A DNA stretch of 23,431 nt from a virus (lineage: Duplodnaviria > Heunggongvirae > Uroviricota > Caudoviricetes), in IMG/VR virus record IMGVR_UViG_2651869749_000011; one strand, written 5' to 3'. Of the stretch, positions 100 to 23,431 are shown one piece after another. A program made the translations under genes and the position numbers. Numbering within the stretch: the first letter of the stretch is position 1; each line of letters starts with the position of its first letter. Below the pieces are notes generated by a model. That model did no database searches. It was not told the DNA's origin and saw only the letters and a list, made by a program, of their open reading frames with translations.

Positions 100-669
100 T
101 TATTGTGGTTGCACAGGCCAAACTGGCTCAAGAATATCAACACGGTTCAGCAATACCCGATACTTCTTCCAGGCTGTCAGCAACGATATTTCTTCCTCCG
201 TTGCAATCTCCAGATCTACCGCATCCTGAAGTGGCGAAATATGCTCACTGGCTACCTGCATCAGGCTGTTTTTTGTTTCTTCCGCCTCCCGGATCCGGAA
301 CAGTTTTTCTGCTTCTGCATCTTTCACCCAGGCTGTGCCGTTCCACTTCTGAAACTCCCCTTCCGGCGATAACCAGGTAACATTTTCCGGTAACGGACCG
401 AGTTCAGAAATAAATAAAGCATCACCGGAAGTTACGTCATATACAGTTTTACCTCGGTGGTCTTCAACAATATTCCAAGATTTATTCTCACTGTTAAAAA
501 CAGCCACAAATCCAGCCTCCACATCTGGTGGTGCTATATCTGTAGTATTAGCTGGTAGACCTGTATACGGTGGGATATATGCGTCACTTTCCCCAATAAA
601 TTCATTGGTTCCATCAAGTAAATTAAATACGCGGATAGTTTGTGCTTCTGCACTCATTCTGAAAGTCAT
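100..669 (-). CDS. tfa: tail fiber assembly chaperone (Tfa family)
   Basis: 189-aa ORF whose N-terminal and central regions read like lambda Tfa (MxFRMS..NEFIGE..AYIPPxTGLPANxTDIAPP..[34 protein letters not shown]). Its ATG overlaps the stf stop codon (TAATG), consistent with translational coupling. The last ~10 residues differ from lambda Tfa as I recall it. Confidence 0.85.
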
Positions 670-3533
670 TATGCAAGCCTCACAATATAGTTAAATGCGA
701 TGTTTTTGACGGTGTTTTCGGTATTACCAGTAGCATTTACGGTAATGGAATGCCCGTGTGAGCCAATGGCAACAGTGTGTGAATGTGCACCAATACCAAC
801 AGTATGGTTATGTGCTCCAATGTCGACTGTATGTGCATGATTGCCTGATGAACTAGTAGTCGTAGCACCTTTATCACTTCGCGGAACACCATAATTTGCA
901 CCGCCTGATTGCACGCTCACAGCAAAACCGACGGTATGTGTATGATTGCCTGAAGTATTGGTTGATTTTGTGCCGTGGTTAAACGTACTGACTGTCTTCG
1001 TGCCGTAATCAAATGAACTGGTCGTTTTCGTCCCTAAATCCGTATTTGACGCACTGGCGCTGTGAGTATGTGATTTAATCCCGTCCTGTTCCTGTGATAA
1101 TACAGCACGCCCACTGGCGGGTTTGCCCTTGATTGTCCAGCCGCGCATATCCGGAATAACACCAGAAGGATAGGCTATAGCCAGTTTCGGATATGCAGAT
1201 TTGTCAAAAGTCTGCCCCTGCATCAGGGCATAGCCAGACGGAACGGTATCTGATGGCCACGGGATTGGTGCGCCGACTGGATAAAACTCTGCAGGAGGAT
1301 GAGCCGAGGTGTAAAGCTGCGCCCACGGCGACCAGTTTGCGTCGGTCGTATCCCGTCGTGAACGAATAAATGCCGGAGCATGAGCACCGCTTGTACCACT
1401 CCAGCCGATGAGTAACTCACCTTCGCCAACGGCTGTCATCCCTTTCAGGTGAATGATATTTCCATACGCTGTTGGATATCCGTTGTTATACACCTCGTAT
1501 AACTCAAGACCTGCTGCCCCCTGCGTATTGTCTGTCAGCGCGGCTACCCGACCTTTTGAAGCCAGATTAACTGATGATACTGCTGTTCCACCTGACGGTA
1601 GCGCCCCGATCTCTGATGCCGTTGGCTTATTTCTGGAGTTATAGTCCCTTCGCCAACCAGGTGAATAATCTGTTCCGTGATTAATATAGGTAAACTGGGC
1701 GTTGGTTGTTCCGCCACCGCTGGATGTGGTCGGAGTGGTAATGCGGATCGTCATCGCTGACTTTATCCCCATTACTTCAATGACAGCTCCGGCGAGATGA
1801 ATATTACCGCAGCCAGTATCAGTAATGATTTTATTATTGCCATAAGACCAGGAACCCTTGCACATCCAGTATGGATGGTTAAATGCTCCCTGAGAATCCA
1901 GCCACTCGATAAACTGTGCAGTCGTCCAGTTTCCTGTTGTTGTGCTTACTGACCCACCGAAGGCACGGCAGGCACCAATATTTTTCGTAAAGGTGTCATT
2001 GCCAGGGATATCCGCACCGTTCTGATCTTTCTGCAGACGTTTCTCAGCATTGTCATTGGCTGCTTTTACTGCCTTCGGCGTTGCCGCCAGCGTTTCAGAT
2101 GTGCTGTTGGTCGCACTGCTGAGCTGTACTATCCCCTTTTTCGTCGTGCTCGCATCCTCAAGCGCCACGGCGGATGCAATATCCTCTGCCCGTTTTGCAG
2201 CTGTCTCGGCGCGCGTTGCCGCGGATTCAGCCGCATTTTTGCTCTGAGCTGCCTCCGTCGCACTTCCTGCCGTCTCTGTCGCCTTCGTGGATGCCGTTGA
2301 CGCACTCTCTGCCGCCGCTGACGCCTGTCTGGTCGCCTCATCTTTTGAATCAGACGCAGATGATGCCGATGATGCCGCCGAACTGGCTGATGATGCGGCT
2401 GCCGTCTTTGAGGATTCTGCGCTGGTTTCCGACGCTTTCGCGTTCGTTTCGGATGTCTTCGCTGCGGATGCAGACCTCGCTGCTGCGCTGGCCTGTTCAG
2501 CGGCTTCGCCAGCCTTCGTTGTGGCTGTTGAAGCAGACGATGCGGCACTTTCTGCCGATTTTCCGGCGGCGGTGGCACTGGCTGAGGCCTGCCCGGCACT
2601 TGTTGACGCTGCACTGGCAGACGACGCAGCCGCTGTTTTTGAGCCTGCCGCAGCTGAGGCGCTCTGTCCCGCTGCCGTTTCAGAAGACCTGACGTTCGTC
2701 TCGGACGTTTTTGCCGCCTTCGCGGAATTTCCTGCCGCCGTTGCCGAGGAAGCGGAACTACTGGCGCTCGAGGCTGCGCTCGTTTCTGATGATTTTACCG
2801 CCTCTTTTGAAGCCGACGCATCCCTGGCTGAGGAGGCCGCATCTGACGCTTTCGTGGTCGCGGTGGATGCAGAAGTGGCGGCTGATTGTTGTGACGCTGC
2901 GGCATTCGTTTCTGACGTTTTCGCCGCACCGGCACTGGTAGCCGCCGCGCTTTTTGAGGACTCTGCAGCGGCAGCACTTTTTTCCGCTTCAGTGGCCTTT
3001 GTTGATGCCGTTCCTGCGCTGGAGGACGCTGACTGAGCCGACGAAGCAGCCTGTCCGGCTGACGTGCTGGCTGCGCGTGCTGAGCCTGCAGCATCAGTCG
3101 CATGGGTTGCCGCCTCACTGGCAGATGTGCCGGCATCGCCGGCTGACTTCTTCGCGGCTGCCGTGTTCTGTGCCACCGCGGACGCGTTACGCGCCACCTC
3201 TTCCACCATCAGTTCAAAACGTCGCAGTGCCTCCGGACGGGCATCATCCTCCGTCATGGCACCGAGAAAATCATTCAGCGTACCGGGTTGAGAATCTTCA
3301 TACACGGTGATAGTCCCGGCATGTGACGGCGGGAATCCCTCCACCAACAGAATAACGCTGTACTGACCATACTCAACGTCCATACTGTAACGCCCGGCTT
3401 CATCCGGATTTTCTGAGGCCAGCGTGTTCACCACCACCGTGGTACTGTTACGTTTTGCTTTCAGCTGGATTGTGCAGTTCTGTACCGGTTTTCCTGTGCC
3501 GTCTTTCAGTACACCAGAAATCTTTACTGCCAT
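669..3533 (-). CDS. stf: side tail fiber protein
   Basis: 955 aa from the ATG at 3533 (the ORF track begins 2 codons upstream at a GTG). The N-terminus [26 protein letters not shown].. matches lambda Stf. It is followed by a long Ala/Ser/Thr-rich low-complexity shaft and a C-terminal His-rich tip ([37 protein letters not shown]) of the type seen in the T4 gp37 fiber tip. Confidence 0.85.
2100..3200 (-). repeat. low-complexity Ala/Ser/Thr-rich repeat region inside stf (fibrous shaft)
   Basis: Protein-level reiteration of motifs such as [18 protein letters not shown] and TASTKATE across roughly 350 residues. The GC-rich GCN/TCN codon bias generates several long shadow ORFs in other frames on both strands. 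Boundaries are approximate. Confidence 0.7.
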
Positions 3534-3544
3534 ATTCACCCCAC

Positions 3545-3597: not shown

Positions 3598-4197
3598 TCA
3601 GAATTTATAACCGACACCCACGATGAAACCGTCAGTGCGCCAGTCGCCACTGCCGGAGCCTTCATAAGCAATATCAACGGCCACGGATTCGGTCGGGTTA
3701 AACTGCACGCCAGCTCCCCACGCCAGAGAGGTGTTACTGTGGCGAGCGTCATCACTTCCGGTCAGCACATCGTGCGTTTTCCCCTTGTTGTCAGTTACGC
3801 GGAGATAATCCCCGAAGAAAGTCGACACACGGCTGTAAGCCACACCCGCCATCGCATACGCGCTGAACCATTCATTCACGCGCACAGACGGCCCCGCCAT
3901 CACGCTGAACCAGCGGTTACGAACGGAATCTTCATGCCAGCGGGTATCGCTGTAACGGGTAAGCTGGCGATTCTTGTCTCCTGCATAGCTGAATGACGTC
4001 ACCATTCCCAGCGTGTCCGTAAACTCATAACGGTATTTCACGTTAATCCCGTTCAGATCATCGCTGCCGGAAACGTTCGTCGAGACATGAAGATAGCCCG
4101 CGCTCAGCGTGGACTGATGTTCAGATGCCCATGCAGGCGCACCGGATACGGCCAGACAGATGGCTGCGGAAAAAATGGCGGCATAAAGTTTACGCAT
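3598..4197 (-). CDS. lom: outer membrane beta-barrel protein Lom (Ail/Lom/PagC/OmpX family)
   Basis: 199-aa ORF at the lambda lom position between J and stf. It has an N-terminal signal peptide ([24 protein letters not shown]|SE), alternating amphipathic beta-strand character and a C-terminal aromatic residue (..GVGYKF) typical of outer membrane barrels. Confidence 0.85.
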
Positions 4198-4263: not shown

Positions 4264-7665
<3,402 letters not shown>

Positions 7666-7684
7666 TCATGCTCCATAAACGACA

Positions 7685-7704
7685 AAACCGCCCGGAGGCG
7701 GTTT
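7685..7704 (-). terminator. terminator-like stem-loop in the I-J intergenic region
   Basis: Perfect 8-bp stem AAACCGCC / GGCGGTTT with a 4-nt loop, followed on the minus strand by a moderately U-rich tract (TGTCGTTTAT) and then the J ribosome binding site (GGAG) and start. Function not established. Confidence 0.3.
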
Positions 7705-7722
7705 CACATGAAATATTTTGCA

Positions 7723-8394
7723 TCAGCGGCCAATCACCACAACCTGACCACCGTCCCCTTCGTCTGCCGTGCTGATCTCCTGAGAAACCACGCGTGACCC
7801 CACGCGCATTTCACCGTACAGAACCGGCAGAACATTGCCCTGGGCAACCATGTTATCCAGTGAGGAGAAATAGGTGTTTTGTTTGCCGTTATCCGTTGTC
7901 TGTGTACGGGGAGTTCTGGCTTTCGGTGCCAGCATTTGCGCCACACCACCGAGCACCATACTGGCACCGAGAGAAAACAGGATGCCGGTCATACCACCGG
8001 CCCCAATGGCTGCCCCCCATGCTGCAAGGGTGGCTCCGGCGGTAAAGAATGATCCGGCAATGGCGGCAGCCCCCAGGACAATCTGGAATACGCCACCTGA
8101 CTTGGCCCCGGCGACTCTGGGAACAATATGAATCACAGCGCCATCAGGCAGAGTATCATGTAACTGCGCCGTTAACCCGGACGTGCTGACGTCCCGCCCG
8201 GCAATCCGTACCTGATACCAACCGTCGCTCAGTTTCTGACGAAACGCCGGAAGCTGTGTGGCCAGCGCCCGGATGGCTTCAGCACCCGTTTTCACACGAA
8301 GGTCGATGCGGCGGCCAAATCGTTGTAAATCCCCGTAAAGGCAGATGCGTGCCATGCCCGGTGACGCCAGAGGGAGTGTGTGCGTCGCTGCCAT
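7723..8394 (-). CDS. I: tail tip assembly protein I
   Basis: 223-aa ORF, the same length and position as lambda gpI. Its first 34 codons overlap the 3' end of K in another frame (103-bp overlap). Confidence 0.9.
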   Translation of the reverse strand: MAATHTLPLASPGMARICLYGDLQRFGRRIDLRVKTGAEAIRALATQLPAFRQKLSDGWYQVRIAGRDVSTSGLTAQLHDTLPDGAVIHIVPRVAGAKSGGVFQIVLGAAAIAGSFFTAGATLAAWGAAIGAGGMTGILFSLGASMVLGGVAQMLAPKARTPRTQTTDNGKQNTYFSSLDNMVAQGNVLPVLYGEMRVGSRVVSQEISTADEGDGGQVVVIGR

Positions 8395-9035
8395 TTGTCG
8401 GTATACCTCTCTCGTTTGCTCAGTTGTTCAGGAATATGGTGCAGCAGCTCGCCGTCACCACAGTAAATAGCGGCATGATTCGGCACCGATGAACCAAAGC
8501 AGCACAGCAGCACATCGCCCGGCTGCGCCGCTGACAACGGCACCTGATACAGCCCCGTTGCCTCCAGATTATCCAGATAGAGATTCTGACCGTGACGCCA
8601 CCAGTCATCCTCCCGCGTAAAATCCGGCATCTCAATCCCCGCCAGATGGTAAGCGTCCCGGAACAGCGTGTAACAGTCCGTCACCCCGTGCTCAAAGCGC
8701 CGCCCGGTGAGATGCGGCACACAGCGGAACTTGTGAATCGCCCCCCGGCAGACCAGCCACCACGGCAAATCACTCTGCACCTGCAGCCGCCGGTCGGCCT
8801 CACTCAGCCAGGGCAGACCACCGGGATGACTGTGGACCAGCGCCACAATCTCACCCTGCATCTCTGCCTGCAGCCAGTCCTCCGGCGACATCCGGAAATA
8901 ATCCTCCGGCTCACCGGAGATATTCACGCAGGGAAAATATCTTTCCCCCTCCGGCGTTCTCACCACGAAGCCGCACGACTCCGCTGGCGCACATCGCCGG
9001 GCGTGCGCCAGAATCGCTGATTCTGTCTCTGTCAT
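8292..9035 (-). CDS. K: tail tip assembly protein K (JAMM/MPN-like plus NlpC/P60-like)
   Basis: 247-aa ORF starting 6 nt after the L stop. It contains H68-S-H70-x7-S78-x2-D81 (ALVHSHPGGLPWLSEAD), a JAMM-type metal-binding motif, preceded by E19-S-C-G-F-V-V, which resembles the conserved upstream Glu motif of that fold. An alternative internal start exists at 8891 (MSPEDWLQAE.., preceded by GGAGG), which would give 199 aa. Confidence 0.8.
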   Translation of the reverse strand: MTETESAILAHARRCAPAESCGFVVRTPEGERYFPCVNISGEPEDYFRMSPEDWLQAEMQGEIVALVHSHPGGLPWLSEADRRLQVQSDLPWWLVCRGAIHKFRCVPHLTGRRFEHGVTDCYTLFRDAYHLAGIEMPDFTREDDWWRHGQNLYLDNLEATGLYQVPLSAAQPGDVLLCCFGSSVPNHAAIYCGDGELLHHIPEQLSKRERYTDKWQRRTHSLWRHRAWHASAFTGIYNDLAAASTFV

Positions 9036-9040
9036 GGGAT

Positions 9041-9739
9041 TTACTGCGAAAGTTTGTTAATGGAAAGGAAGCCGCCAAAGTTGCCGACGTTATTGCGAAA
9101 CTTACAGCCACTCAGGCATTTGCTGCATTTATCCTTCGTGATATCGGACGTCGGCTGGTCATATTCATCCGCGACCGCCGGACCGCTATAACCGCACTCA
9201 TCACCGCGATAGGTCCAGGTACAGGTGTTGGCCAGCATGATGCGCCCCGGAAAAACAGCACCATCCGTTTCCGTCGGTGTGGACAACACAAAGGAGGCAC
9301 TGACCGCGCTCAGTTCGCTGCACTGCTCGATGCGCCAGCGGCTGATCACCTCCTGCTCCGGATCGGCATCGCTGTTTCCGTTGACGAAGTTCACCGCATC
9401 CAGAAAACGGGCGTAAACCTTACGCCTGACCACCGTTCCGCCGACCAGACTCTGCAGATCTTCCACCATCCCGGTGACCATGCCGTACAGGTTAGAGACT
9501 GCCAGCGTGGGGCGCGTACTGGTGCCTTTGCCATTCAGTTCAAAACCACTCCCCTGAATGGGATACGCCAGATACTGCCGCCCCTGCCAGGTGACCGGCT
9601 CACCTTTTTCGTTCTGCTCATTACAGAAAAAATAACGTTCACCACCGACCTCTGTCAGATCGATTTCCCAGAGCACCACGCTGGCCGACTGCTCCGCACG
9701 GGTGCATTCATTCAGTGTTTCCTGCCGGATATCCTGCAT
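9041..9739 (-). CDS. L: tail tip assembly protein L
   Basis: 232-aa ORF, the same length and order as lambda gpL. Its start overlaps the M stop by 1 nt. Confidence 0.9.
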   Translation of the reverse strand: MQDIRQETLNECTRAEQSASVVLWEIDLTEVGGERYFFCNEQNEKGEPVTWQGRQYLAYPIQGSGFELNGKGTSTRPTLAVSNLYGMVTGMVEDLQSLVGGTVVRRKVYARFLDAVNFVNGNSDADPEQEVISRWRIEQCSELSAVSASFVLSTPTETDGAVFPGRIMLANTCTWTYRGDECGYSGPAVADEYDQPTSDITKDKCSKCLSGCKFRNNVGNFGGFLSINKLSQ

Positions 9740-10068
9740 CAGTTCACCACCTGTTTAAACTCTGCGCTGAACTCAACACGCAGCATACTGACCCGCGACG
9801 TCCATTTTGCGCAGGTCACCTTTATCTGCCGCCAGTCATAAGGCGGCGTCCACAGAAAGGCTTTCCAGCCTCCGTGCTCTGCCAGAAACGATTCCAGCGC
9901 CGTGGCCTCCCAACGGGGGACAGAAATCGTCACGCTGTACGTTTTCAGGTTGGCATTCAGCCCGGCAGGCGCGCGCTGGGAGTAACCATCACCAAAGCGC
10001 ACCTCCCTGACGGAAGGAGTCGAAGCCACATCCATACCCGGTTTCACTTTCCAGCGGAAGGTTTTCAT
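9739..10068 (-). CDS. M: tail tip assembly protein M
   Basis: 109-aa ORF, the same length as lambda gpM. Its start overlaps the H stop (ATGA). Confidence 0.9.
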   Translation of the reverse strand: MKTFRWKVKPGMDVASTPSVREVRFGDGYSQRAPAGLNANLKTYSVTISVPRWEATALESFLAEHGGWKAFLWTPPYDWRQIKVTCAKWTSRVSMLRVEFSAEFKQVVN

Positions 10069-12644
10069 CGTCCACCTCCGGAGAACAGACCACCATCACG
10101 CATCTGCCCGGTCACAACATCCATTGCCGCCTTACGGGCTACGTCATAAACCGCCTTCAGCGCCTGTGGCCCTATCTGACCGTTCGTGCCGTCGTTGTTA
10201 ATCACCACATGGTTATTCTGCTCAAACTTCCCGGACGCCTGCGACCGACTGTCCGCCATGCTGCCCGGTGTACCGACATAACCGCCGGTGGCATAGCCGC
10301 GCATCAGCCGGTAAAGATTCCCCACGCCAATCCGGCTGGTTGCCTCCTTCGTGAAGACAAATTCACCACGGTGAACAATCCCCGCTGGCTCATATTTGCC
10401 GCCGGTTCCCGTAAATCCTCCGGTCGCAAAATGGAGTTTCGCCGCAGCGGCCTGAATGGCTGCACCACCTGACGCTGATGAGCCGCCACCGGTAGCACCT
10501 CCAATGGCGCTGCCGATACTCCCGACAATCCCCACCATTGCCTGCTTAAGCAGAATTTCTGTCATCATGGACAGCACGGAACGGGTGAAGCTGCGCCAGT
10601 TCTGTTCACTGCCGGTCAGCATCGCCGCCATATTCTGTGCAATACCATCAAAGGTCTGCGTGGCTGCACTTTTAACCTGCGACATACTGTCCGTGGCGCT
10701 CTCTTCCCACTCACTCCAGCCGGACTTCAGGCCTGCCATCCAGCTCCCACGAAGCTGGTCTTCAGCCGCCCAGGTCTTTTTCTGCTCTGACATGACGTTA
10801 TTCAGCGCCAGCGGATTATCGCCATACTCCTCCTTCAGGCGCTGTTCCGTGCCTTCCCGTTCTGCCTGCCGGTCAGTCAGCCCCCGGCTTTTCGCATCAA
10901 TGGCGGCCCGTTTTGCCCGTTGCTGCTGTGCGAATTTATCCGCCTGCTGCGCCAGCGCGTTCAGGTGCTCCTGATACGTAACCTTGTCGCCAAGTGCAGC
11001 CAGCTGGCGCTTGTACTCCAGCGTCTCATCTTTATGCGCCAGCAGGGATTTCTCCTGTGCAGACAGCTGGCGACGTTGCGCCGCCTCCTCCAGTACCGCG
11101 AACTGATTCTCCGCCTTCCACAAATCCCGGCGCTGCTGGCTGATTTTCTCATTCGCTCCGGCATGCTTCTCCAGCGTCCGGAGTTCTGCCTGAAGCGTCA
11201 GAAGGGCAGCATGAGCACTGTCTTCCTGACGATCGCCCGCAGACACCTTCACGCCGGAGTGCTTCGGCTTTTTCAGCGTCGCTTCATAGTCCTTTTTCGC
11301 CGCCGCCATCAGCGTGTTGTAATCTGCCTGCAGGATTTTCCCGTCCTTCAGTGCCTTGTTCAGTTCTTCCTGACGGGCGGTATATTTCTCCAGCGGCGTC
11401 TGCAGGCGTTCGTAAGCCTTCTGCGCCTCTTCGGTATATTTCAGCCGTGATGCCTCAGAGTCGGCCCAGTCCTTTGCTGCCATCTCTCTGGCCTTTTCAA
11501 GATCGGCCTTCAACGTGGCGGCTGAAAGCCCAAGTTGCGCATTCACTCTGTCCTCCCATGCTCCACGGAGATTGGCAAGAAATGCTGAGGTTTTACCGCG
11601 CCGGTGGCTTCGGCTCTGATACCACTGCCATTTTTTATCCGCTTCATCAAAAGCCTTTTCAGCTTTGGCGAGCATATCTGCAGAGGAGTCCGGGCGGCCA
11701 ATATCCAGCACCGCATCCCACATGGATTTGAATGCCTGTGCAGTCTTGTCAGCCCAGGTCTCCAGCGTACCCATGTTCTCTTTCAGGCGGCGGGTCTGGT
11801 CATCAAACCCTTTCGTTGCGGCCTCGTTCGCCGCCTGCAACGCCCCGGCCCCATCGCCGGAACGCTGCAACTGAGCAACATACGCAATCTGTTCCGCCGT
11901 CACGTTATGGAACTGGCGCGCCATCGCCGTCAACCCAGACGTCGGGTCAGTGGTCAGCTTCCCGAAGGCTTCAGCGACCTTGTCCACCTCCACGCCGGAT
12001 GCAGAGGAGAAACGCGCCACACTCTGGCTGATTGCCTCAAACTGCTCACCACCACGCACACCGGCATTCACCAGCGCCGTCAGTGACTCGCTGGTCTGGT
12101 TAAACGTCAGCCCTGCCGCCTGCCCGGATCTGGACAGGGCCAGCATACGATCTGCCGTCAGTCCCGCCTGATTACCGGAAAGGACCAGCGTTTTGTTGAA
12201 ATTAGACAGGGTTGAGTCACCCTGATACCAGGCATACGCCAGCGCACCGGTCGCCACCGCTAGCGAAGTGATACCAACCATCGGCAGGGTGATCGCACCG
12301 GCAAGCCCCCTGAACATGGGGATCATCCCGCCGAAGGAGTCCTTCACCTGACCGCCCTGTTGCAGCAGGATCAGCCACGGACTTTGCCCGCCTGCAAGCT
12401 GCGTGGCCACGTCGGTGAACTGCGCAGGCAGCATACGCATGGCAGCTTTATACTGCCCGACGGAAATCCCCGCTTTCTGTGCAGCCAGCGCCTGTCGGTT
12501 CATCGACTGTTCAACGACTGCCGCTGTTTTTTTCGCATCACTTTCCGTACCGGAAAAATGACGCCTGACTCTGGCCATCTGCTCGTCAAATCTGGCCGCA
12601 TCCAGACTCAAATCAACGACCAGATCACCTACCGGTTCAGCCAT
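10065..12644 (-). CDS. H: tail tape measure protein H
   Basis: 859-aa ORF with N-terminus MAEPVGDLVVDLSLDAARFDEQMARVRRHF.. as in lambda gpH, a coiled-coil-rich middle and a Gly-rich C-terminal region. A strong ribosome binding site (AGGAGG) precedes it and its start overlaps the end of the T frame. Confidence 0.95.
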   Translation of the reverse strand: MAEPVGDLVVDLSLDAARFDEQMARVRRHFSGTESDAKKTAAVVEQSMNRQALAAQKAGISVGQYKAAMRMLPAQFTDVATQLAGGQSPWLILLQQGGQVKDSFGGMIPMFRGLAGAITLPMVGITSLAVATGALAYAWYQGDSTLSNFNKTLVLSGNQAGLTADRMLALSRSGQAAGLTFNQTSESLTALVNAGVRGGEQFEAISQSVARFSSASGVEVDKVAEAFGKLTTDPTSGLTAMARQFHNVTAEQIAYVAQLQRSGDGAGALQAANEAATKGFDDQTRRLKENMGTLETWADKTAQAFKSMWDAVLDIGRPDSSADMLAKAEKAFDEADKKWQWYQSRSHRRGKTSAFLANLRGAWEDRVNAQLGLSAATLKADLEKAREMAAKDWADSEASRLKYTEEAQKAYERLQTPLEKYTARQEELNKALKDGKILQADYNTLMAAAKKDYEATLKKPKHSGVKVSAGDRQEDSAHAALLTLQAELRTLEKHAGANEKISQQRRDLWKAENQFAVLEEAAQRRQLSAQEKSLLAHKDETLEYKRQLAALGDKVTYQEHLNALAQQADKFAQQQRAKRAAIDAKSRGLTDRQAEREGTEQRLKEEYGDNPLALNNVMSEQKKTWAAEDQLRGSWMAGLKSGWSEWEESATDSMSQVKSAATQTFDGIAQNMAAMLTGSEQNWRSFTRSVLSMMTEILLKQAMVGIVGSIGSAIGGATGGGSSASGGAAIQAAAAKLHFATGGFTGTGGKYEPAGIVHRGEFVFTKEATSRIGVGNLYRLMRGYATGGYVGTPGSMADSRSQASGKFEQNNHVVINNDGTNGQIGPQALKAVYDVARKAAMDVVTGQMRDGGLFSGGGR

Positions 12645-13077
12645 ACCGGACTCCTCCTGCGATCCCTTCTGATACTGTCATCAGCATTACGTCATCCTCC
12701 GTCATGTCCGCCACATCCGGGGAAGCGGGGATAACTTCATTCCCGTCAGGGCCAAAACGAACGCCTCCGGCAAGCCCTGCCGCTTTCTGCATCAGCACAT
12801 CATCTTCAGGCTCTTCGTCAGCCTCACGCCGGCTCAGCAGACTGAAATCCAGCGGATGCATATCCGGATCGCTGAAAAACAGGCTGAGCACGGTGTACGT
12901 CAGCCCGGAAAAGTGCATATCCAGCAGAACATCATGAAAATAATGGGTACTGTAAAAGCGGTGCCAGTCGGCATACTCCGTGGATGACATCCCGGCAAGC
13001 ATGGCGCGCCAGTCGGGTCGCCCCATCTCACGCGCCAGTTTCAGGGCAAAACTCAGCTCACCGTCGAACACTTTCCC
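12637..13077 (-). CDS. T: T reading frame of tail assembly chaperone gpGT (made by -1 frameshift from G, no independent start)
   Basis: Open frame of about 144 codons running from the slippery site to a TGA at 12637. The ORF track's apparent start is a GTG lying inside the slippery region. Position and length match lambda T. Confidence 0.8.
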   Translation of the reverse strand, partial: GKVFDGELSFALKLAREMGRPDWRAMLAGMSSTEYADWHRFYSTHYFHDVLLDMHFSGLTYTVLSLFFSDPDMHPLDFSLLSRREADEEPEDDVLMQKAAGLAGGVRFGPDGNEVIPASPDVADMTEDDVMLMTVSEGIAGGVRYG

Positions 13078-13475
13078 GCAGAAACAGGCTCTGCAGGCCC
13101 GGCGTCATCTGTCTGTTCAGGGGCATTATTCACAACAAACTCAGACATTCCGGACAGACGTAACACAACGTTTTCAGCCTGAGCAATTGCCTCCGTGGGC
13201 CAGGTGGTAAGCACTTCCTGCTCAATCTGCGTAATGGCTTCATTCATGGACGGCAGCTTTGTTTTCTGCGGATGGTTATGCCACAGAGACATCGCCACCA
13301 GAAACGCCCCGCCTCTGATAAGATCCTCTACAGACACCTGCAGGTTGCCACTGGATTCAGCCTTTTTTTCCTGCTCTTTCAACCAAGCAAGATGCTCAAT
13401 ACGCTGCAGGGCTGACAGTTCAGAAAGCGTGACGGTCACGCCGTTATGTTCAAATGATTCGGTTTTCAGGAACAT
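13053..13475 (-). CDS. G: tail assembly chaperone G
   Basis: 140-aa ORF starting MFLKTESFEHNGVTVTLSELSALQRIEHL.., the same length and position as lambda gpG. It ends ..AGKCSTVS just after the slippery site. Confidence 0.9.
   Translation of the reverse strand: MFLKTESFEHNGVTVTLSELSALQRIEHLAWLKEQEKKAESSGNLQVSVEDLIRGGAFLVAMSLWHNHPQKTKLPSMNEAITQIEQEVLTTWPTEAIAQAENVVLRLSGMSEFVVNNAPEQTDDAGPAEPVSAGKCSTVS
13071..13077 (-). promoter_or_regulatory. programmed -1 ribosomal frameshift slippery heptamer G GGA AAG (G into T)
   Basis: The minus strand reads GCG GGA AAG in the G frame 6 codons before the G stop. After a -1 shift the T frame reads GGG AAA GTG TTC GAC.. (G K V F D G E L..). This is the same heptamer used in lambda. 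Confidence 0.8.
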
Positions 13476-13490
13476 CTCTGACTCTCCGGA

Positions 13491-14231
13491 TTAGCTGTCG
13501 GTGACGTTGATTTCTGCAACCGCAGCAAACTCACCATTACCGGATACGACCGGAATGTTGACCTTGCCTGCAGCAACGCCCTTCACGGTGATGGTCATCC
13601 CACTGACCGACACGGTGGCTTTTGTTTTATCCGCTGACACCGCACGGAAGCTCTTGTCGGTTGCGCCTTCCGGCTGGAATGCCACGGTCAGCGTGGTGCT
13701 CTGCCCTTTCACTACGGAAGCACTGGCTGGCGTTACCGTCATGCCGGTTGCCGCTGTCACCGTGCTGCGATCTTCTGCCATTGACGGACGGCCCACATTG
13801 GTGACCTTCACCGTACGGGTGATCACTTCCTTCGCCGTCACTGCCTTACCGATACTGCTGACCCAGCCACGGAACACATCGACCGTGCCGTTCGGGAAGC
13901 GGATTTTATAGGCACGGGTATCGCCTTCATTAAACCACGCCAGCAGCGCCTGCTGCCCCTGCTCTCCGGGCATCCACGCCAGCGTGAAGCTGGTATCTCC
14001 GGCGGATTTCTGCCCCTGCCCGGTCGCGGCCCAGTCCGGATCTTCATCATCGAGATAACTGTCGTCATAGGACTCTGCGGTCAGTTCGCCGGGCGTCAGT
14101 TCTTTAACTTTTGCCAGACGCGACCAGTCAACGTCTGAAAGCGGGTTCGCATAAGGGTCACCGTTCCCCTTATAAACCCACAGGGTGGTTCCGGCCCCTT
14201 TCACCGGTGCCAGAGGATTTGGTGTTGGCAT
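13491..14231 (-). CDS. V: major tail tube protein V
   Basis: 246 aa from the ATG at 14231 ([22 protein letters not shown]..), with the ribosome binding site GAGGA upstream. The ORF track extends it by 10 codons to an upstream ATG inside U. The C-terminal region is Ig-like. Confidence 0.9.
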
Positions 14232-14238
14232 ATCGTCC

Positions 14239-14634
14239 TCACATTTCATAGGTAATGACATAAGTCAGATCGGCTGAACTCCACAGGCCCGCATCATCGT
14301 CGCGCCGGTAGTCATAGCCACTGGCCACCATACTGGTGATCAAATCTGACAGTGCCGGGATATCGTTCATCACCGGATAAATCCGGGACTCCATCCACGC
14401 ATCCAGCTCTGAATCCGGTACCTGAGCAGGCAGGAAAACTTCAATATGCAGCTCCGCCTGCCAGGTATCGCTGTCCAGCTCTTCGCCCGTGTATTCAGCG
14501 CCGGTGAGATAAACGGCAACTGCCGGAAAATCCGCCTCATCAAAAACAGCGGGGCGACCATCAAAAAGCGTCGCCCCGGTGTCATGCTTCTCCAGTGCAC
14601 CCAGTACGGCTGCACGGAGTTCAGTATGTTTCAT
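14239..14634 (-). CDS. U: tail terminator protein U
   Basis: 131-aa ORF, the same length as lambda gpU, starting [48 protein letters not shown]... Its start overlaps the Z stop (ATGA). Confidence 0.9.
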
Positions 14635-15164
14635 CGCTTTATTACCATCCTCAGTTGATGCTGCAGCGCATAGCCCAGCTCTTTCGGAAGACGCTCACGC
14701 CGTATCTGTTCAATATTCTGTTTAAACGCCGTGGTCAGCGGCACCGCCATCGGGATTTTCACCACATCAATGGGGTAACGGTTTTTCCCGGCCACACGCT
14801 GCATGACATGCCAGCGACCATTTTTTAATCGCTGGATAAATGCCCGCTGATAACGATGCTGACCGGCCCGTAGCGTACTGTTGGGACGACTTCCGGTGAT
14901 CCGTATCCCCAGTTTGATGACAGGTAAATCACCGCGGTTAACAATGATTTTTACGTGCGGATTTTTGACCGTGGCCTTTTTCAGTCTGGCCCTTTCCTTT
15001 ACCAGTTTTCGCCGCACCTTTGTCTCACGGGCAACCTGTGACGCCGACTGATTCATTGCCGTTGTGGCCACGCGGTTAATGGCCATTGCGGAGGCACCGG
15101 GCACTGCCGTTTTGCTGATACGGCTGAGGTTTTCAACGGCCTGCTCAAGACCTTTTATGGCCAT
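14631..15164 (-). CDS. Z: tail completion protein Z
   Basis: 177-aa ORF starting MAIKGLEQAVENLSRISKTAVPGA.. and ending ..[21 protein letters not shown], matching lambda gpZ. It is about 15 codons shorter than my recollection of lambda Z (192 aa). Confidence 0.85.
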   Translation of the reverse strand: MAIKGLEQAVENLSRISKTAVPGASAMAINRVATTAMNQSASQVARETKVRRKLVKERARLKKATVKNPHVKIIVNRGDLPVIKLGIRITGSRPNSTLRAGQHRYQRAFIQRLKNGRWHVMQRVAGKNRYPIDVVKIPMAVPLTTAFKQNIEQIRRERLPKELGYALQHQLRMVIKR

Positions 15165-15175
15165 ACCTCCTCCTT

Positions 15176-15529
15176 TCAGCGGCGACGGTTAACGGCAGGC
15201 GGTACGCCCCGCCCAAGCCAGAGATGACAGCTTCCGCCATCATCCGGCGAAATCCGGTCTATCCAGAAGTTTTCCTCACCGATGCTCAGCGTGTCGCCGC
15301 GCCGCAGCTGCCGCACATCATCAGTCCGGACAAACAGGGACGGGCTGGAGCCTTCAACGCGCACGCCCTGTCCGGCATAGCTGATATTTTCAGGGTCATC
15401 AAAAACACCACGTATCACAGCACCGGACTGCTCACCGGATGTCATGGTGGCTGACGTTCCCATGTACCCGCGTATCGTTTCATCGGCGCAGGCAATGGCA
15501 GCATCGAACAGGTTATCGAAATCAGCCAC
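15176..15529 (-). CDS. FII: head-tail joining protein FII
   Basis: 117-aa ORF starting MADFDNLFDAAIACADETIRGYMGTSATMTSGEQSGAVIRGVFDDPENISYAGQGVRVEG.., the same length and position as lambda gpFII. Confidence 0.9.
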   Translation of the reverse strand: MADFDNLFDAAIACADETIRGYMGTSATMTSGEQSGAVIRGVFDDPENISYAGQGVRVEGSSPSLFVRTDDVRQLRRGDTLSIGEENFWIDRISPDDGGSCHLWLGRGVPPAVNRRR

Positions 15530-15540
15530 AGCGCCTCCCG

Positions 15541-15936
15541 TTATTGCATTCTGGCCAGGCCGCGCTCTGTCATTTCAGCTGCCACACCGGCAGAGACACG
15601 GAACGCCGTTCCCGGCAGCACAAATGCCACAGCCTCATCCCGCGTGGCGTGAAGTGCATCAGTATGCAGCGTCACCAGTGCCACAACCGTGACCAGATCA
15701 GCCGTATCAGTCACGGTATCCGGCTGCGCTGATACCAACTCATTTTCATGCCCGGTCAGCGCATTTTCCGGGCTGACAGATGTGTCCTGACCGGCAGCGT
15801 CATCCGTGTCATTAAGCTCCTCTTCCAGCTCTGCCACACGGAGTGCCAGTTCTTCTTTCGTCCCCGTCAGGCTGACATCACGGTTCAGTTGCTCACCCAG
15901 CACCTGAAGACGGGCAATCAGTTCATCTTTCGTCAT
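15541..15936 (-). CDS. FI: DNA packaging accessory protein FI
   Basis: 131 aa from the ATG at 15936 (MTKDELIARLQVLGEQLNRDVSLTGTKEELALRVAELEEEL..), preceded by the ribosome binding site GAGGAG. The ORF track extends it 13 codons upstream. Confidence 0.85.
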   Translation of the reverse strand: MTKDELIARLQVLGEQLNRDVSLTGTKEELALRVAELEEELNDTDDAAGQDTSVSPENALTGHENELVSAQPDTVTDTADLVTVVALVTLHTDALHATRDEAVAFVLPGTAFRVSAGVAAEMTERGLARMQ

Positions 15937-15947
15937 GGACTCCTCCA

Positions 15948-15975
15948 CAGAGAGAAAATGGCCCCGAAGGGCCAT
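15948..15975 (-). terminator. terminator-like stem-loop immediately after E
   Basis: On the minus strand, directly after the E stop: ATGGCCC-TTCG-GGGCCAT (7-bp stem with a UUCG-type tetraloop) followed by TTTTCTCTCT, then the FI ribosome binding site. Confidence 0.45.
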
Positions 15976-15977
15976 GA

Positions 15978-17003
15978 TTACGCCAGTTGTACGGACACGA
16001 ACGCATCAGGGTCAGCCAGCAGCATCAGCGGTGCTGACTGAATCATGGTGAACTCACACGCCGGATCGCCGGTGGTCACCCAGTTTTTCGGGTAGCGGGC
16101 AGAGGCGTTAATACCTTCGCGCTGTGCGTCCGCATCCTGAATGCAGCCATAGGTGCGCAGACCGCGTGCCTGAGTGTTCCCCAGCACCATCGTGTTGTCC
16201 GGCAGGAAGTTCTTTTTGACGTCGTTTTCCACGTACTGTCCGGAATACACGACGATCGCCGTATCGCCATACATCCCCTTATAGGACACCGCTTCGCCCA
16301 GGTCTTTTACCGCAGTCTCCAGCTCGGAATTAGAGCCGCGACGGGTATCCAGCTTCTCCTTGACGGCTTTGAAGGAACGGAACAGCGCCCAGCCTTTCGG
16401 ATCAAACACGATGATGTTCACCACACCGCTGGCGTTCAGCGCGTAGGCTTCGATATCGTCGGTCGGGTCATACGTGGACTTGTCACGCTTGCTCCACTCC
16501 GTGCCACCGGACTGTGTGATGTTGTTCGCCGCACTGCGGCCCATATCCACCTCAACCGGATCGAAGGCTTCACCGGTCATGGTGTATTTGCCCTTGAGCA
16601 CAGCAGAAACGGCCTGCATCTCTTCGACCTGAGCAATGGCAAGCTCCTCATCACGCATGTTTTGCATGATGATGCGACGGCGGCGGTAAGCCGGATCCGC
16701 CAGATTCTGTGGATCTTCATCCGGCAGGCGACGCAGGGTCATCTGCGGATTCACCTCATGCTTCGGCTTGACATATCCCGGCGTAAATTCAGAGGTGGAG
16801 CCACCACGGGAGCGGATAACCTCACCGGAAACAATTGGCGAAACGTACAACGCCATGTTTACCAGTCCCGGAATTTGTGAGAGATAGACTTTCTCCGTGG
16901 TGAAGGGATAGCTCTCACGGAAAAAGAGACGCAGAAACAGCGGATCAAACTTAAATTTCTTCTCATTTGCCGCCAGCAGCTGGGCGGTTGTGTACATCGA
17001 CAT
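15978..17003 (-). CDS. E: major capsid protein E
   Basis: 341 aa from the ATG at 17003 (MSMYTTAQLLAANEKKFKFDPLFLRLFFRESYPFTTEKVYLSQIPGLVNMALYVSPIVSG..), the same length as lambda gpE. The ORF track extends it 9 codons upstream. Confidence 0.95.
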   Translation of the reverse strand: MSMYTTAQLLAANEKKFKFDPLFLRLFFRESYPFTTEKVYLSQIPGLVNMALYVSPIVSGEVIRSRGGSTSEFTPGYVKPKHEVNPQMTLRRLPDEDPQNLADPAYRRRRIIMQNMRDEELAIAQVEEMQAVSAVLKGKYTMTGEAFDPVEVDMGRSAANNITQSGGTEWSKRDKSTYDPTDDIEAYALNASGVVNIIVFDPKGWALFRSFKAVKEKLDTRRGSNSELETAVKDLGEAVSYKGMYGDTAIVVYSGQYVENDVKKNFLPDNTMVLGNTQARGLRTYGCIQDADAQREGINASARYPKNWVTTGDPACEFTMIQSAPLMLLADPDAFVSVQLA

Positions 17004-17013
17004 AAAAAAATCC

Positions 17014-17037
17014 CGTAAAAAAAGCCGCACCGGCGGC
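17014..17037 (-). terminator. terminator-like stem-loop in the D-E intergenic region
   Basis: On the minus strand: GCCGC-CGGT-GCGGC (5-bp GC stem, extendable with A-U and G-U pairs) followed by TTTTTTT ACGGGA TTTTTTT and the E start codon. Confidence 0.35.
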
Positions 17038-17058
17038 CTTTAGTGATGAAGGGTAAGG

Positions 17059-17391
17059 TTAAACGATGCTGATTGCCGTTCCGGCAAACGCGGTCCGTTT
17101 TTTCGTCTCGTCGGTGGCAGCCTCCGGCCAGAGCACATCCTCATAACGGAACGTGCCGGACTTGTAGAACGTCAGCGTGGTGCTGGTCTGGTCAGCAGCA
17201 ACCGCCAGAATGCCAACGGCAGCACCGTCGGTGGTGCCATCCCACACAACCAGCTTACGGGTGGAGGTATCCGGCATCAGCGGGGTCATTGCAGGCGCTT
17301 TCGCACTCAATCCGCCGGGCGCGGTTGCCGTATGTGCCGGGTCACTGTTGCCCAGCGGCTGGTAATGGGTAAAGGTTTCTTTGCTCGTCAT
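17059..17391 (-). CDS. D: capsid decoration protein D
   Basis: 110 aa from the ATG at 17391 ([39 protein letters not shown]..). The ribosome binding site GGGA is better spaced for this ATG than for the ATG two codons upstream used by the ORF track. Confidence 0.95.
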
Positions 17392-17400
17392 AAACATCCC

Positions 17401-18006
17401 TTACACTGGTGTGTTCAGCAAATCGTTAACGGCATCAGATGCCGGGTTACCTGCAGCCAGCGGTGCCGGTGCCCCCTGCATCAGACGATCCAGCGCAGTG
17501 TCACTGCGCGCCTGTGCACTCTGTGGTGCAGCTGCCAGAATGCGGCGGGCCGTTTCCACGGTCATACCGGGGGTTTCGGCCAGCACGCGTGCCTGTTCTT
17601 CGCGTCCGTGAGCCTCCTCACAGTTGAGGATCCCCATAATGCGGCTGTTTTCTGCCGCAACCGCTGCGGTGATCTGCGCGTTCACATCCGGCTGCGCCGC
17701 GCTGGCGTTTTTGCCCTCCGTCGCTTGCACCACGCCAGTAACGTCAGCCTGCGAAGCAGTGGCTGAAACAGTTGTTGATTGAGTCTCTTTGGTCATTCGC
17801 CCTCCTGAGAGACGGGATTTACGTGTATCCAGTGCATCACGCATGACGGTGATCGCATCGGTACTGTTAACAAGTTCATCAGCCAGTCCGGCATCAATGG
17901 CCTCCTGACCGCTGTACACTGCAGCCTCGGTATCCAGCACAGCCTGCACGGACAGGCCGGTATATGCCGATACCTTCTGTGCAAACATCCGGCGGGTTGC
18001 ATCCAT
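17401..18006 (-). CDS. Nu3: capsid scaffolding protein Nu3 (in-frame internal start within C)
   Basis: In-frame ATG at 18006 (MDATRRMFAQKV..) giving 201 aa co-terminal with C, as in lambda. Assigned by position and homology only. Confidence 0.65.
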   Translation of the reverse strand: MDATRRMFAQKVSAYTGLSVQAVLDTEAAVYSGQEAIDAGLADELVNSTDAITVMRDALDTRKSRLSGGRMTKETQSTTVSATASQADVTGVVQATEGKNASAAQPDVNAQITAAVAAENSRIMGILNCEEAHGREEQARVLAETPGMTVETARRILAAAPQSAQARSDTALDRLMQGAPAPLAAGNPASDAVNDLLNTPV

Positions 18007-18700
18007 CCGGGACTGCAGTGTTTCCCGGACATCATCCGGTAGATGGCTGTAGGGGTTGCCATCCACCTTATGGCTGCCGCTGTAAATCAGCGTGATTTCC
18101 ACGCCCTGTTTCTCCAGCGCAGCGCCGTAATTACTGTGAGCCATCATGGCGCCGATGGAGCCTGTCCGGGCGGTCTGCGTGACCAGACGCCGGGAGGCGG
18201 CACTGGCAAGCAGCTGACCTGCACTGCAGTTCATGTCGTTGGCCAGCGCCCATACCGGTTTTATGTCACGCACACGGGCGATGATGTCAGCGCAGTCAAA
18301 TGCCCCCGCCACCATCCCGCCGGGCGTGTCCATATCGAGCAGAATGCCGTCCACCATCGGATCGCTGGCAGCCTGTTGCAGACGGGCGATAATGCCGTTG
18401 TAACCGGTCATCCCCGAATACGGCTGCAGCGCCCGCGTCCGGCTGACCAGCGTGCCGGAAACCGGCAGCACGGCGATGCCGTTCATGACCTGATAACTGC
18501 GGGCCTGTCGTGGTCCGTCATCATCACCGGATAACGCCAGCGTCGCGGGTGCCTCTCCGGCAGTCAGGCTGTCACCGGACACCGCATCTGTCAGGCGGCT
18601 GATCCCAAGCTGGCCTGCAAGCGCACAAAAGAAAACCCGCGCATAGGCGGGTTCAAGCATCAGCGGCTCATTAAAGGCCATGCTGGCAATATGCGGGAGA

Positions 18701-18720
<20 letters not shown>
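17401..18720 (-). CDS. C: capsid assembly protease C
   Basis: 439 aa if started at the GTG at 18720 (V/M-TAELRNLPHIASMAFNEPLMLEPAYARVFF..), which has a strong ribosome binding site (AGGAGG) 6 nt upstream and lies within the last codons of B. The ORF track's extension to 18855 would overlap B by 155 bp and is unlikely to be real. This is a ClpP/SppA-like serine protease region. Confidence 0.85.
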
Positions 18721-22401
<3,681 letters not shown>

Positions 22402-22427
<26 letters not shown>

Positions 22428-22947
22428 TCAGCAACCCCGGTATCAGTTCATCCAGCGCGGCTGCTTTGTTCATGGCTTTGATGATATCCCGTTTCAGGAA
22501 ATCAACATGTCGGTTTTCCAGTTCCGGAAAACGCCGCTGCACCGACAGTGGGATCCCGTCGAGAATACTGGCAATTTCACCTGCGATCCGCGACAGCACG
22601 AAAGTACAGAATGCGGTTTCCACCACTTCAGCGGAGTCTCTGGCATTTTTCAGCTCCTGTGCGTCGGCCTGCGCACGCGTAAGTCGATGGCGTTCGTACT
22701 CAATAGTCCCTGGCTGGAGATCTGTCTCGCTGGCCTGCCGCAGTTCTTCAACCTCCCGGCGCAGCTTTTCGTTCTCAATTTCAGCATCCCTTTCGGCATA
22801 CCATTTTATGACGGCGGCAGAGTCATAAAGCACCTCATTACCCTTGCCACCGCCTCGCAGAACGGGCATTCCCTGTTCCTGCCAGTTCTGAATGGTACGG
22901 ATACTCGCACCGAAAATGTCAGCCAGCTGCTTTTTGTTGACTTCCAT
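22402..22947 (-). CDS. nu1: terminase small subunit Nu1
   Basis: 181-aa ORF MEVNKKQLADIFGASIRTIQNWQEQGMPVLRGGGKGNEVLYDSAAVIKWYAERDAEIENEKLRREVEEL.. with an N-terminal helix-turn-helix, matching lambda Nu1 in length and sequence. Confidence 0.95.
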
Positions 22948-23124
22948 TGTTCATTCCACGGACAAAAACAGAGAAAGGAAACGACAAAGGCCAAAAAGCC
23001 CGTTTTCAGCACCTGTCGTTTCCTTTCTTTTCAGGGGGTATTTTAAATAAAAACACTAAGTTACGACGAAGAAGAACGGAAACGCCTTAAACCGGAAAAT
23101 TTTCATAAATAGCGAAAACCCGCG
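22948..23124 (-). promoter_or_regulatory. cosB region (terminase small-subunit and IHF binding elements between cosN and Nu1)
   Basis: The reverse complement reads ..CGCGGGTTTTCGCTATTTATGAAAATTTTCCGGTTTAAGGCGTTTCCGTTCTTCTTCGTCGTAACTTAGTGTTTTTATTTAAAATACCCC.., very close to my recollection of the lambda left end up to the Nu1 start. Individual R1/R2/R3/I1 elements were not mapped. Confidence 0.7.
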
Positions 23125-23136
23125 AGGTCGCCGCCC
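23125..23136 (-). other. cosN cohesive-end sequence (GGGCGGCGACCT on the minus strand)
   Basis: Exact 12-mer identical to the lambda cohesive end, at the expected distance upstream of Nu1. The adjacent sequence on the other side (cosQ side, 23137..23170: ..CGTAGCCTGCCGGATCGCCGGAAAGGACCCG..) resembles the lambda right end with a few substitutions. Confidence 0.85.
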
Positions 23137-23332
23137 CGTAGCCTGCCGGATCGCCGGAAAGGACCCGCAAGCGTTCTGGTTTATTCGCAATGAATTCAAT
23201 GTCTGACAGACCAGCGTCGTGCGACCACGGTCGCACGCTCCTGAATACATGCCCTGTTTCTTCCACCCTCGCACAAGACTGGCGAGCATGAGGGACAAAC
23301 CCGCGAATCATTAGCGCGGTAAAAACCCGGTG

Positions 23333-23431
23333 TGAACCGCCCCGGGAATCCTGGAGACTAAACTCCCTGAGAAAGAGGTAAACAGGATGACTAAAAATAC
23401 ACGTTTTTCCCCCGAGGTCCGTCAACGGGCA
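23333..23431 (+). mobile_element. IS3-family insertion sequence, left end (IS629/IS1203-like), truncated by the window edge
   Basis: TGAACCGCCCCGGGAATCCTGGAGACTAAACTCCCTGAGAAAGAGG begins at 23333 and matches my recollection of the IS629-type left terminal inverted repeat. An orfA start follows 54 bp in. Confidence 0.75.
23387..23431 (+). CDS. IS3-family transposase OrfA, N-terminal 15 codons (partial)
   Basis: ATG at 23387 preceded by AGAGG. Translation MTKNTRFSPEVRQRA matches the IS629/IS1203 OrfA N-terminus as I recall it. The ORF runs off the window. Confidence 0.7.
   Translation, partial: MTKNTRFSPEVRQRA

Follow-up and report, generated by a model that had tools for sequence, protein, structure and literature searches.

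The window (the whole stretch of DNA that was analyzed, 23,431 bp) contains, on its minus strand, the whole left (morphogenesis) arm of a lambda-like prophage. Beyond the left arm lie a cos site, the last bases of the phage right arm, and the left end of an insertion sequence, at which the window stops (Table 1). From cos leftwards, the gene order is Nu1, A, W, B, C, D, E, FI, FII, Z, U, V, G, T, H, M, L, K, I, J, lom, stf, and tfa. Comparison with lambda gave full-length, stop-free counterparts in the window for 24 of the 24 lambda genes from Nu1 to tfa, which bears out the earlier note's description of the DNA left of cos as intact. Amino acid identity to lambda is 79-100% for most left-arm genes, and lom and the distal tail fiber parts are more diverged. 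Nu1 aligns with lambda Nu1 from end to end at 98.9% identity and has no stops; the Pfam domain Phage_Nu1 is recorded for the identical Nu1 gene in sibling loci.

Table 1. Coordinates of features in the window (positions count from its first base).
Feature	Position	Strand	Comment
tfa	100..669	-	follows the side tail fiber gene
Side tail fiber gene	669..3539	-	single ORF, 956 aa
Lom/Ail-family gene	3598..4197	-	
ORF antisense within gene J	5038..7182	+	714 codons
Tail gene Z	14631..15164	-	177 aa
Nu1 (terminase small subunit), first gene of the left arm	22402..22947	-	181 aa
cosB region and Nu1 leader	22948..23124	-	homologue of lambda bp 13-190
ORF crossing cosN and the IS junction	23087..23425	-	112 codons; 3-323 in contig L024
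cosN, 12-nt cohesive end	23125..23136	-	reverse complement GGGCGGCGACCT, identical to lambda bp 1-12
Last 196 bp of phage right arm, non-coding spacer	23137..23332	-	identical to IS-free RM14723 and L003
cosQ	23160..23166	-	AGGACCC, reverse complement GGGTCCT
Palindrome in spacer	23218..23237		perfect, 9 bp, GC-rich (CGTGCGACC / GGTCGCACG)
Promoter-like hybrid site	23307..23336	-	TTCACA, 18 nt, AATGAT
Flank resembling IS right terminus	23318..23332		GGTAAAAACCCGGTG
GTG, predicted left copy of 3-bp target-site duplication	23330..23332	.	predicted from full-length copies
Left end of IS629-group (IS3 family) element	23333..23431	+	99 bp
Left inverted repeat	~23333-23357	+	identical to 1310-bp copies in L012 and L002
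Start of orfA	23387-23431	+	15 codons (MTKNTRFSPEVRQRA); coordinates from full copy L012

Tail gene Z is 177 aa long versus 192 aa in lambda, with a 15-residue gap and 79% identity. The 177-aa allele was found in 82 index blocks, and because it is so widespread it is probably a normal variant and not a defect. The side tail fiber gene is one unsplit ORF in the window, whereas in laboratory lambda it is frameshift-split as orf-401 and orf-314; its distal part is diverged (62-76% identity). The Lom/Ail-family gene has just 47% identity to lambda Lom, compared with about 80-100% for most of the backbone. The long ORF antisense within J is probably a by-product of J codon composition rather than a gene. 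Positions 1-700 are 100% identical to a degraded prophage in Escherichia coli ES5 (L016), in which a distance of about 1.5 kb separates tfa from ybhB-bioA, near the lambda attachment site; this context points weakly to attB-lambda as the integration site. A second repeat boundary at the left end of the window was considered but was not supported, as positions 1-700 match a single place in ES5.

The cos site was mapped by aligning the reverse complement of positions 22881-23431 to the joined lambda ends. Lambda bp 1 corresponds to position 23136 and lambda bp 48502 to position 23137, and cosN is 177 bp from the Nu1 start codon. On the Nu1 side of cos, 190 bp are almost identical to lambda in this alignment. 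On the right-arm side, the resemblance to lambda stops some 40 bp past the nick, and the sequence beyond about 23175 is unrelated to lambda. The heptamer listed as cosQ has the same sequence and distance from the nick as GGGTCCT at lambda 48473-48479, which we take to be cosQ following the lambda literature. Thus cosQ, cosN, and cosB all appear intact and in the arrangement of a lambda-type cos. The palindrome in the adjoining spacer is not followed by a T-run, and its pairing is not conserved in the related prophage of E. coli LST200A. The 112-codon ORF starts inside the IS end and crosses both the junction and cosN. In IS-free relatives a hypothetical gene is annotated over the last 49 codons of this ORF, which is probably spurious, given that it runs through the cos cut site.

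Identity of the element and its junction

Over the 99 IS bases in the window (127 when sibling contig L006 is included), identity to the left end of 1310-bp elements is 100% (E = 3e-59); these elements are annotated as IS3-family transposase with a programmed frameshift. Matching elements (at least 99% identity) occur in 828 E. coli records, and the usual carriers are chromosomes and large plasmids of O145, O26, O111, O103, and O121 STEC. One full copy, from O145 strain RM9872 (L012, 2501-3810), is 1310 bp long and has imperfect terminal inverted repeats. It encodes an OrfA of 108 aa with Pfam HTH_Tnp_1 and, in the -1 frame, an OrfB that matches HTH_21 and rve; the NCBIfam transpos_IS3 score is 312 bits (cut-off 160). 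An A6 run at IS positions 373-378 lies in the orfA/orfB overlap, and RefSeq carries a note of programmed frameshift. The window itself ends within orfA, short of the frameshift, of orfB with its DDE domain, of the right inverted repeat, and of the right copy of the target duplication. Full copies are flanked by 3-bp target duplications, AGC in L012 and GAT in LST200A (L002). IS629 subtypes, including isoform IS1203, are 4-5% apart (Rump et al., PMC3271280). The L012 copy has 95.6% identity to the VT2-Sakai element annotated as IS629 and 95.1% identity to the LST200A copy. Assignment at the isoform level was made at about 95% or more nucleotide identity to named IS629, which for the window can be assessed over the first 99 bp of the element only. 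We assign the element to the IS629 group of the IS3 family, as a subtype common in non-O157 STEC.

The IS terminus TGAACCGCCCCGGG begins at 23333, with 196 phage bases (23137-23332) between the cos nick and the IS. At the junction the window continues with TGAACCGCCCCGGGAATCC; in IS-free relatives, homology to the window runs through 23334 and is then followed by CATCGTTTTGATTATTCCCG. The TG at 23333-23334 is by chance present in the uninterrupted backbone too. Two other copies with unrelated flanks fix the IS start at this TG (CAGAT-TGAACC in L002 and TCAGC-TGAACC in L012). The IS-free set consisted of E. coli RM14723 (L001), which has 99.7% identity to the window over 22400-23334, and draft contigs L003, L004, L005, L008, L018, and L020. 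The earlier note had called the element IS3-family and IS629-like, and the 100% identity over 99 bp to IS629-group copies supports that call. Its position for the IS, 196 bp from cosN on the side opposite Nu1, was confirmed by the sequence and the lambda alignment. The note had also allowed that the TGAACCGCC terminus might belong to the phage backbone in IS-free relatives; comparison with such relatives speaks against this, as backbone homology breaks at 23334 and the same TG start is found beside unrelated flanks.

Reading toward cos, IS-free siblings have Q, holin, lysozyme, Rz, and Rha, then the insertion site, cos, and Nu1. The insertion site is intergenic in RM14723, where the stop codon of a Rha-family gene is 103 bp away and Rz, endolysin, holin, and Q follow; therefore, no gene is disrupted by the IS. 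The 15 bases of phage flank next to the IS loosely resemble the IS right terminus GGAAAACCGGGGCGGTTCA (L012 ~3790-3810), and this possible likeness might go back to a preference for end-like targets, as some IS3-family elements have. Phage YDC107_1 gave a split match near cos and was set aside because it carries a different resident gene and not an IS.

Three contigs that contain the junction end 77 (L024), 99 (the window), and 127 bp (L006) into the IS. These lengths are standard de Bruijn k sizes, and a contig that enters a repeat extends exactly k bases into it. Because of this pattern, the window is most likely the end of a short-read contig that was broken at a multicopy IS repeat, and a break of this kind implies that the host carries several IS copies. 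Rather than a slice cut at an arbitrary place, the window looks like a complete short-read contig or the end of one. That it stops there because of a repeat-induced assembly break had not been considered in the earlier note. All three contigs stop inside the IS, so the state of the right arm is not readable from them. The methodological lesson is that a window ending one k-mer into an IS says nothing about the right arm or about inducibility.

Occurrence and age of the insertion

The identical junction is present in two further draft assemblies. Over its whole length of 12,658 bp, contig L024 (GCA_002459475.1, contig NJYX01000053.1) matches the window at 100% identity, as does L006/L022 (GCA_965178815.1) over 12,930 bp. 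Among the IS-free siblings, L004 and L008 differ from the window by 3 mismatches in 7.7-8.6 kb and L018 and L020 by 27 mismatches in 18.7 kb, and all four lose homology at 23334. Such near-identical siblings without the IS (3 SNPs in about 8 kb) indicate that the insertion is young. The junction was found in 0 of 5,426 complete E. coli genomes. The cos-proximal backbone occurs in 307 of the 5,426, and among the matches inspected only LST200A has an IS beside it. LST200A, the sole full-coverage match, was tried as the same insertion and rejected; it represents an independent event, 111 bp further from cos. From these comparisons we judge the insertion to be real, recent, and rare.

Exact-pattern searches of genome_contigs and metagenome_contigs, collections in which the strain is apparently absent, gave no match to the left junction. 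The right junction expected for a simple insertion, given as the end of the IS, then 2-8 bases and CATCGTTTTGATTATTCCCG, likewise had no match in either collection. A partner contig was sought through homologues of the neighboring Rha protein (P0001, P0002), and this search led only to IS-free contigs of other phage variants. The 177-aa Z allele was tried as a lineage marker and dropped as too widespread; its survey turned up the third junction-bearing contig, L024. When L022 (~13000-18800) was compared with the window (~4600-10500), the two were identical from the IS to about 10.5 kb and then had 20 mismatches in the K-I-J region. The pattern suggests recombination of a tail-tip module between otherwise identical prophages.

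Effect on the phage and alternative explanations

We consider a recent simple insertion of an IS629-group element into a non-coding spacer, 103 bp downstream of a Rha-family gene, to be the best explanation, with a probability of roughly 0.7. In this reading, an element of the group transposed recently to a point within the spacer that is 196 bp from the cos nick of a lambda-like prophage, with its transposase genes oriented against late transcription. Judging from the comparators, the copy would be a complete 1310 bp with the GTG duplication on both sides and the right arm resuming beyond it. A simple insertion would give the right junction CCGGGGCGGTTCA GTG TGCATCGTTTTGATTATTCC. The consequences for the phage would be small, with no gene disrupted, cos untouched, and Q-modified RNA polymerase reading through the IS. 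The insertion is probably harmless to the phage.

Alternatively, the IS could be a rearrangement boundary, at which an adjacent deletion or IS629 x IS629 recombination removed or displaced the right arm (Rha, the lysis genes, Q, and beyond) and left a cryptic left-arm remnant that keeps cos. The right junction is unseen in all three junction contigs, and the assembly breaks require several IS copies in the host, which are substrates for recombination. IS629-mediated deletion and recombination have been reported in O157 (PMC3271280), and related prophages in RM14723 and ES5 are degraded elsewhere. However, the age of the insertion (3 SNPs in about 8 kb) leaves little time for secondary events, a 23-kb left arm without stops or truncations is unusual in a decaying remnant, and the comparable LST200A insertion is simple, with a 3-bp duplication. 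Because the insertion is very young and the left arm is undecayed, we regard a rearrangement as unlikely, though plausible enough to keep in view. The junction could also be an assembly chimera with no IS at the site, given that the extreme end of the window, which the IS occupies, is prone to mis-joins and repeat overhangs. However, three assemblies have the identical junction and stop at different distances into the IS, and a de Bruijn contig enters a repeat only along real k-mers. Agreement among the three assemblies makes a chimera very unlikely, to the point of being nearly negligible.

A simple insertion might still be polar, or interfere with late transcription or packaging, and make the prophage a poor producer. 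In lambda-type phages the late transcript crosses the cos-proximal site, and it is established that the lysis cassette and Nu1, between which the IS lies, belong to a single late transcription unit. The gene order in IS-free siblings agrees with the earlier note, which had placed the IS in the path of this transcript. The transposase genes converge on late transcription, and partial polarity or transcriptional interference from a convergent transposase promoter may occur. However, Q-modified RNA polymerase is known to resist and pass terminators, and the IS strand read by late transcription has one terminator-like site, which is no more than in shuffled sequence. Furthermore, Sp5/VT2-Sakai and PA4-type phages are productive with an identically oriented IS629 that lies upstream of every lysis and structural gene. 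The suggestion in the earlier note that the IS attenuates late expression is thus speculative and goes against the precedent of antisense IS629 in productive Stx2 phages. As for packaging, cosQ, cosN, and cosB are untouched; the IS is 166 bp beyond cosQ, so the packaging signal is left as it was. The lambda packaging limit is about 51 kb, and a parent genome already about 50 kb long could be pushed past the headful limit by another 1.3 kb. By a rough estimate from relatives with the same cos/Nu1 region, which are 44.6-50.5 kb long, the extra 1,313 bp would stay under the lambda limit for most but not all of them. Overall, we consider impaired production improbable.

IS629 in related phages and significance of the insertion

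IS629 is found in the late region of other phages, and 62% of IS629 copies in O157 genomes sit in prophages or prophage-like elements (PMC3271280). VT2-Sakai/Sp5 (AP000422 24900-26209, annotated "insertion sequence:IS629") likewise has IS629 inside the Q-dependent late unit. In VT2-Sakai/Sp5 and in PA4-type (PST1-1) Stx2a phages, the copies are 95.5-95.6% identical over all 1310 bp to the window's subtype, and the transposase genes are antisense to late transcription, as in the window. The position differs: in VT2-Sakai/Sp5 and PA4 the IS is upstream of the lysis genes, between stx2 and holin, whereas in the window it comes after the lysis cassette, beside cos. The order in PA4 (KP682372) is Q, tRNAs, stx2AB, a hypothetical gene interrupted by antisense IS629, holin, lysozyme, Rz, and terminase. 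IS629 splits a predicted protein in the PA4 type, whereas the site in the window is intergenic; in Sp5 the insertion upstream of the lysis region disrupts no protein-coding gene (Asadulghani et al., PMC2669165). Sp5 and PA4 belong to the short-tailed Stx2 phages, whose packaging and morphogenesis module differs from that of the window's prophage. Their productivity has been shown experimentally (PMC2669165; PMC4587872). Sp5 is the dominantly induced prophage (about 300-fold), forms particles, and lysogenizes K-12 efficiently (PMC2669165). For 13 PA4-type strains, DNase-protected, PEG-precipitated phage DNA containing the IS was recovered after induction at 117-573x coverage, and virion DNA across phage types has 0-3 IS629 copies (PMC4587872).

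The prophage of strain LST200A (NZ_CP110858, IS at L002 7057-8366) has a Nu1 identical to that of the window and a nearly identical cos. Its IS629 is in the same interval between lysis cassette and cos and in the same orientation, is 1310 bp long, and has the GAT duplication. The right arm of this prophage is intact with the IS present (iss/bor, Rz, R, S, Q). The LST200A element is of another subtype, with 5 mismatches in the first 127 bp and 95.1% overall identity to the window's subtype, and its right-arm neighbor is iss/bor, whereas in the window's IS-free siblings it is Rha. Sakai prophage Sp4, also a lambda-like prophage of pathogenic E. coli, has ISEc8 in the cos/terminase region (PMC2669165). 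There, ISEc8 disrupts nu1 and packaging relies on the terminase of another prophage, whereas the window has an intact Nu1 and cos and an intergenic IS; ISEc8 also belongs to a different IS family than the window's element.

The IS629 copies were antisense to late transcription in all three cases examined (the window, LST200A, and PA4/VT2-Sakai). One could propose that persisting IS629 copies in lambdoid late operons are biased toward the antisense orientation and, separately, that the IS end forms an outward hybrid promoter, but we hold this proposal to be a long shot. The bias could arise because late read-through would then silence rather than drive the transposase. The promoter-like hybrid site lies partly in the IS end and partly in the phage flank and is directed toward cos/Nu1; 9 of 12 positions match, and one such site was found versus 0.2 expected in shuffles. 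The predicted weak promoter might give Q-independent transcription toward Nu1/A. If either the orientation bias or the hybrid promoter were true, the insertion would not be neutral.

A near-full-length IS629 copy (at least 80%) was found in 168 phage records, and a full-text literature search for IS629 in a prophage at a cos site gave no match. The insertion is an ordinary case of an already well-documented phenomenon. IS629 in lambdoid prophages of pathogenic E. coli is well known from earlier work, and the significance of this copy is small beyond strain-level bookkeeping. The site is absent from the 5,426 complete genomes and present in at least three draft assemblies, and it could therefore be a lineage marker.
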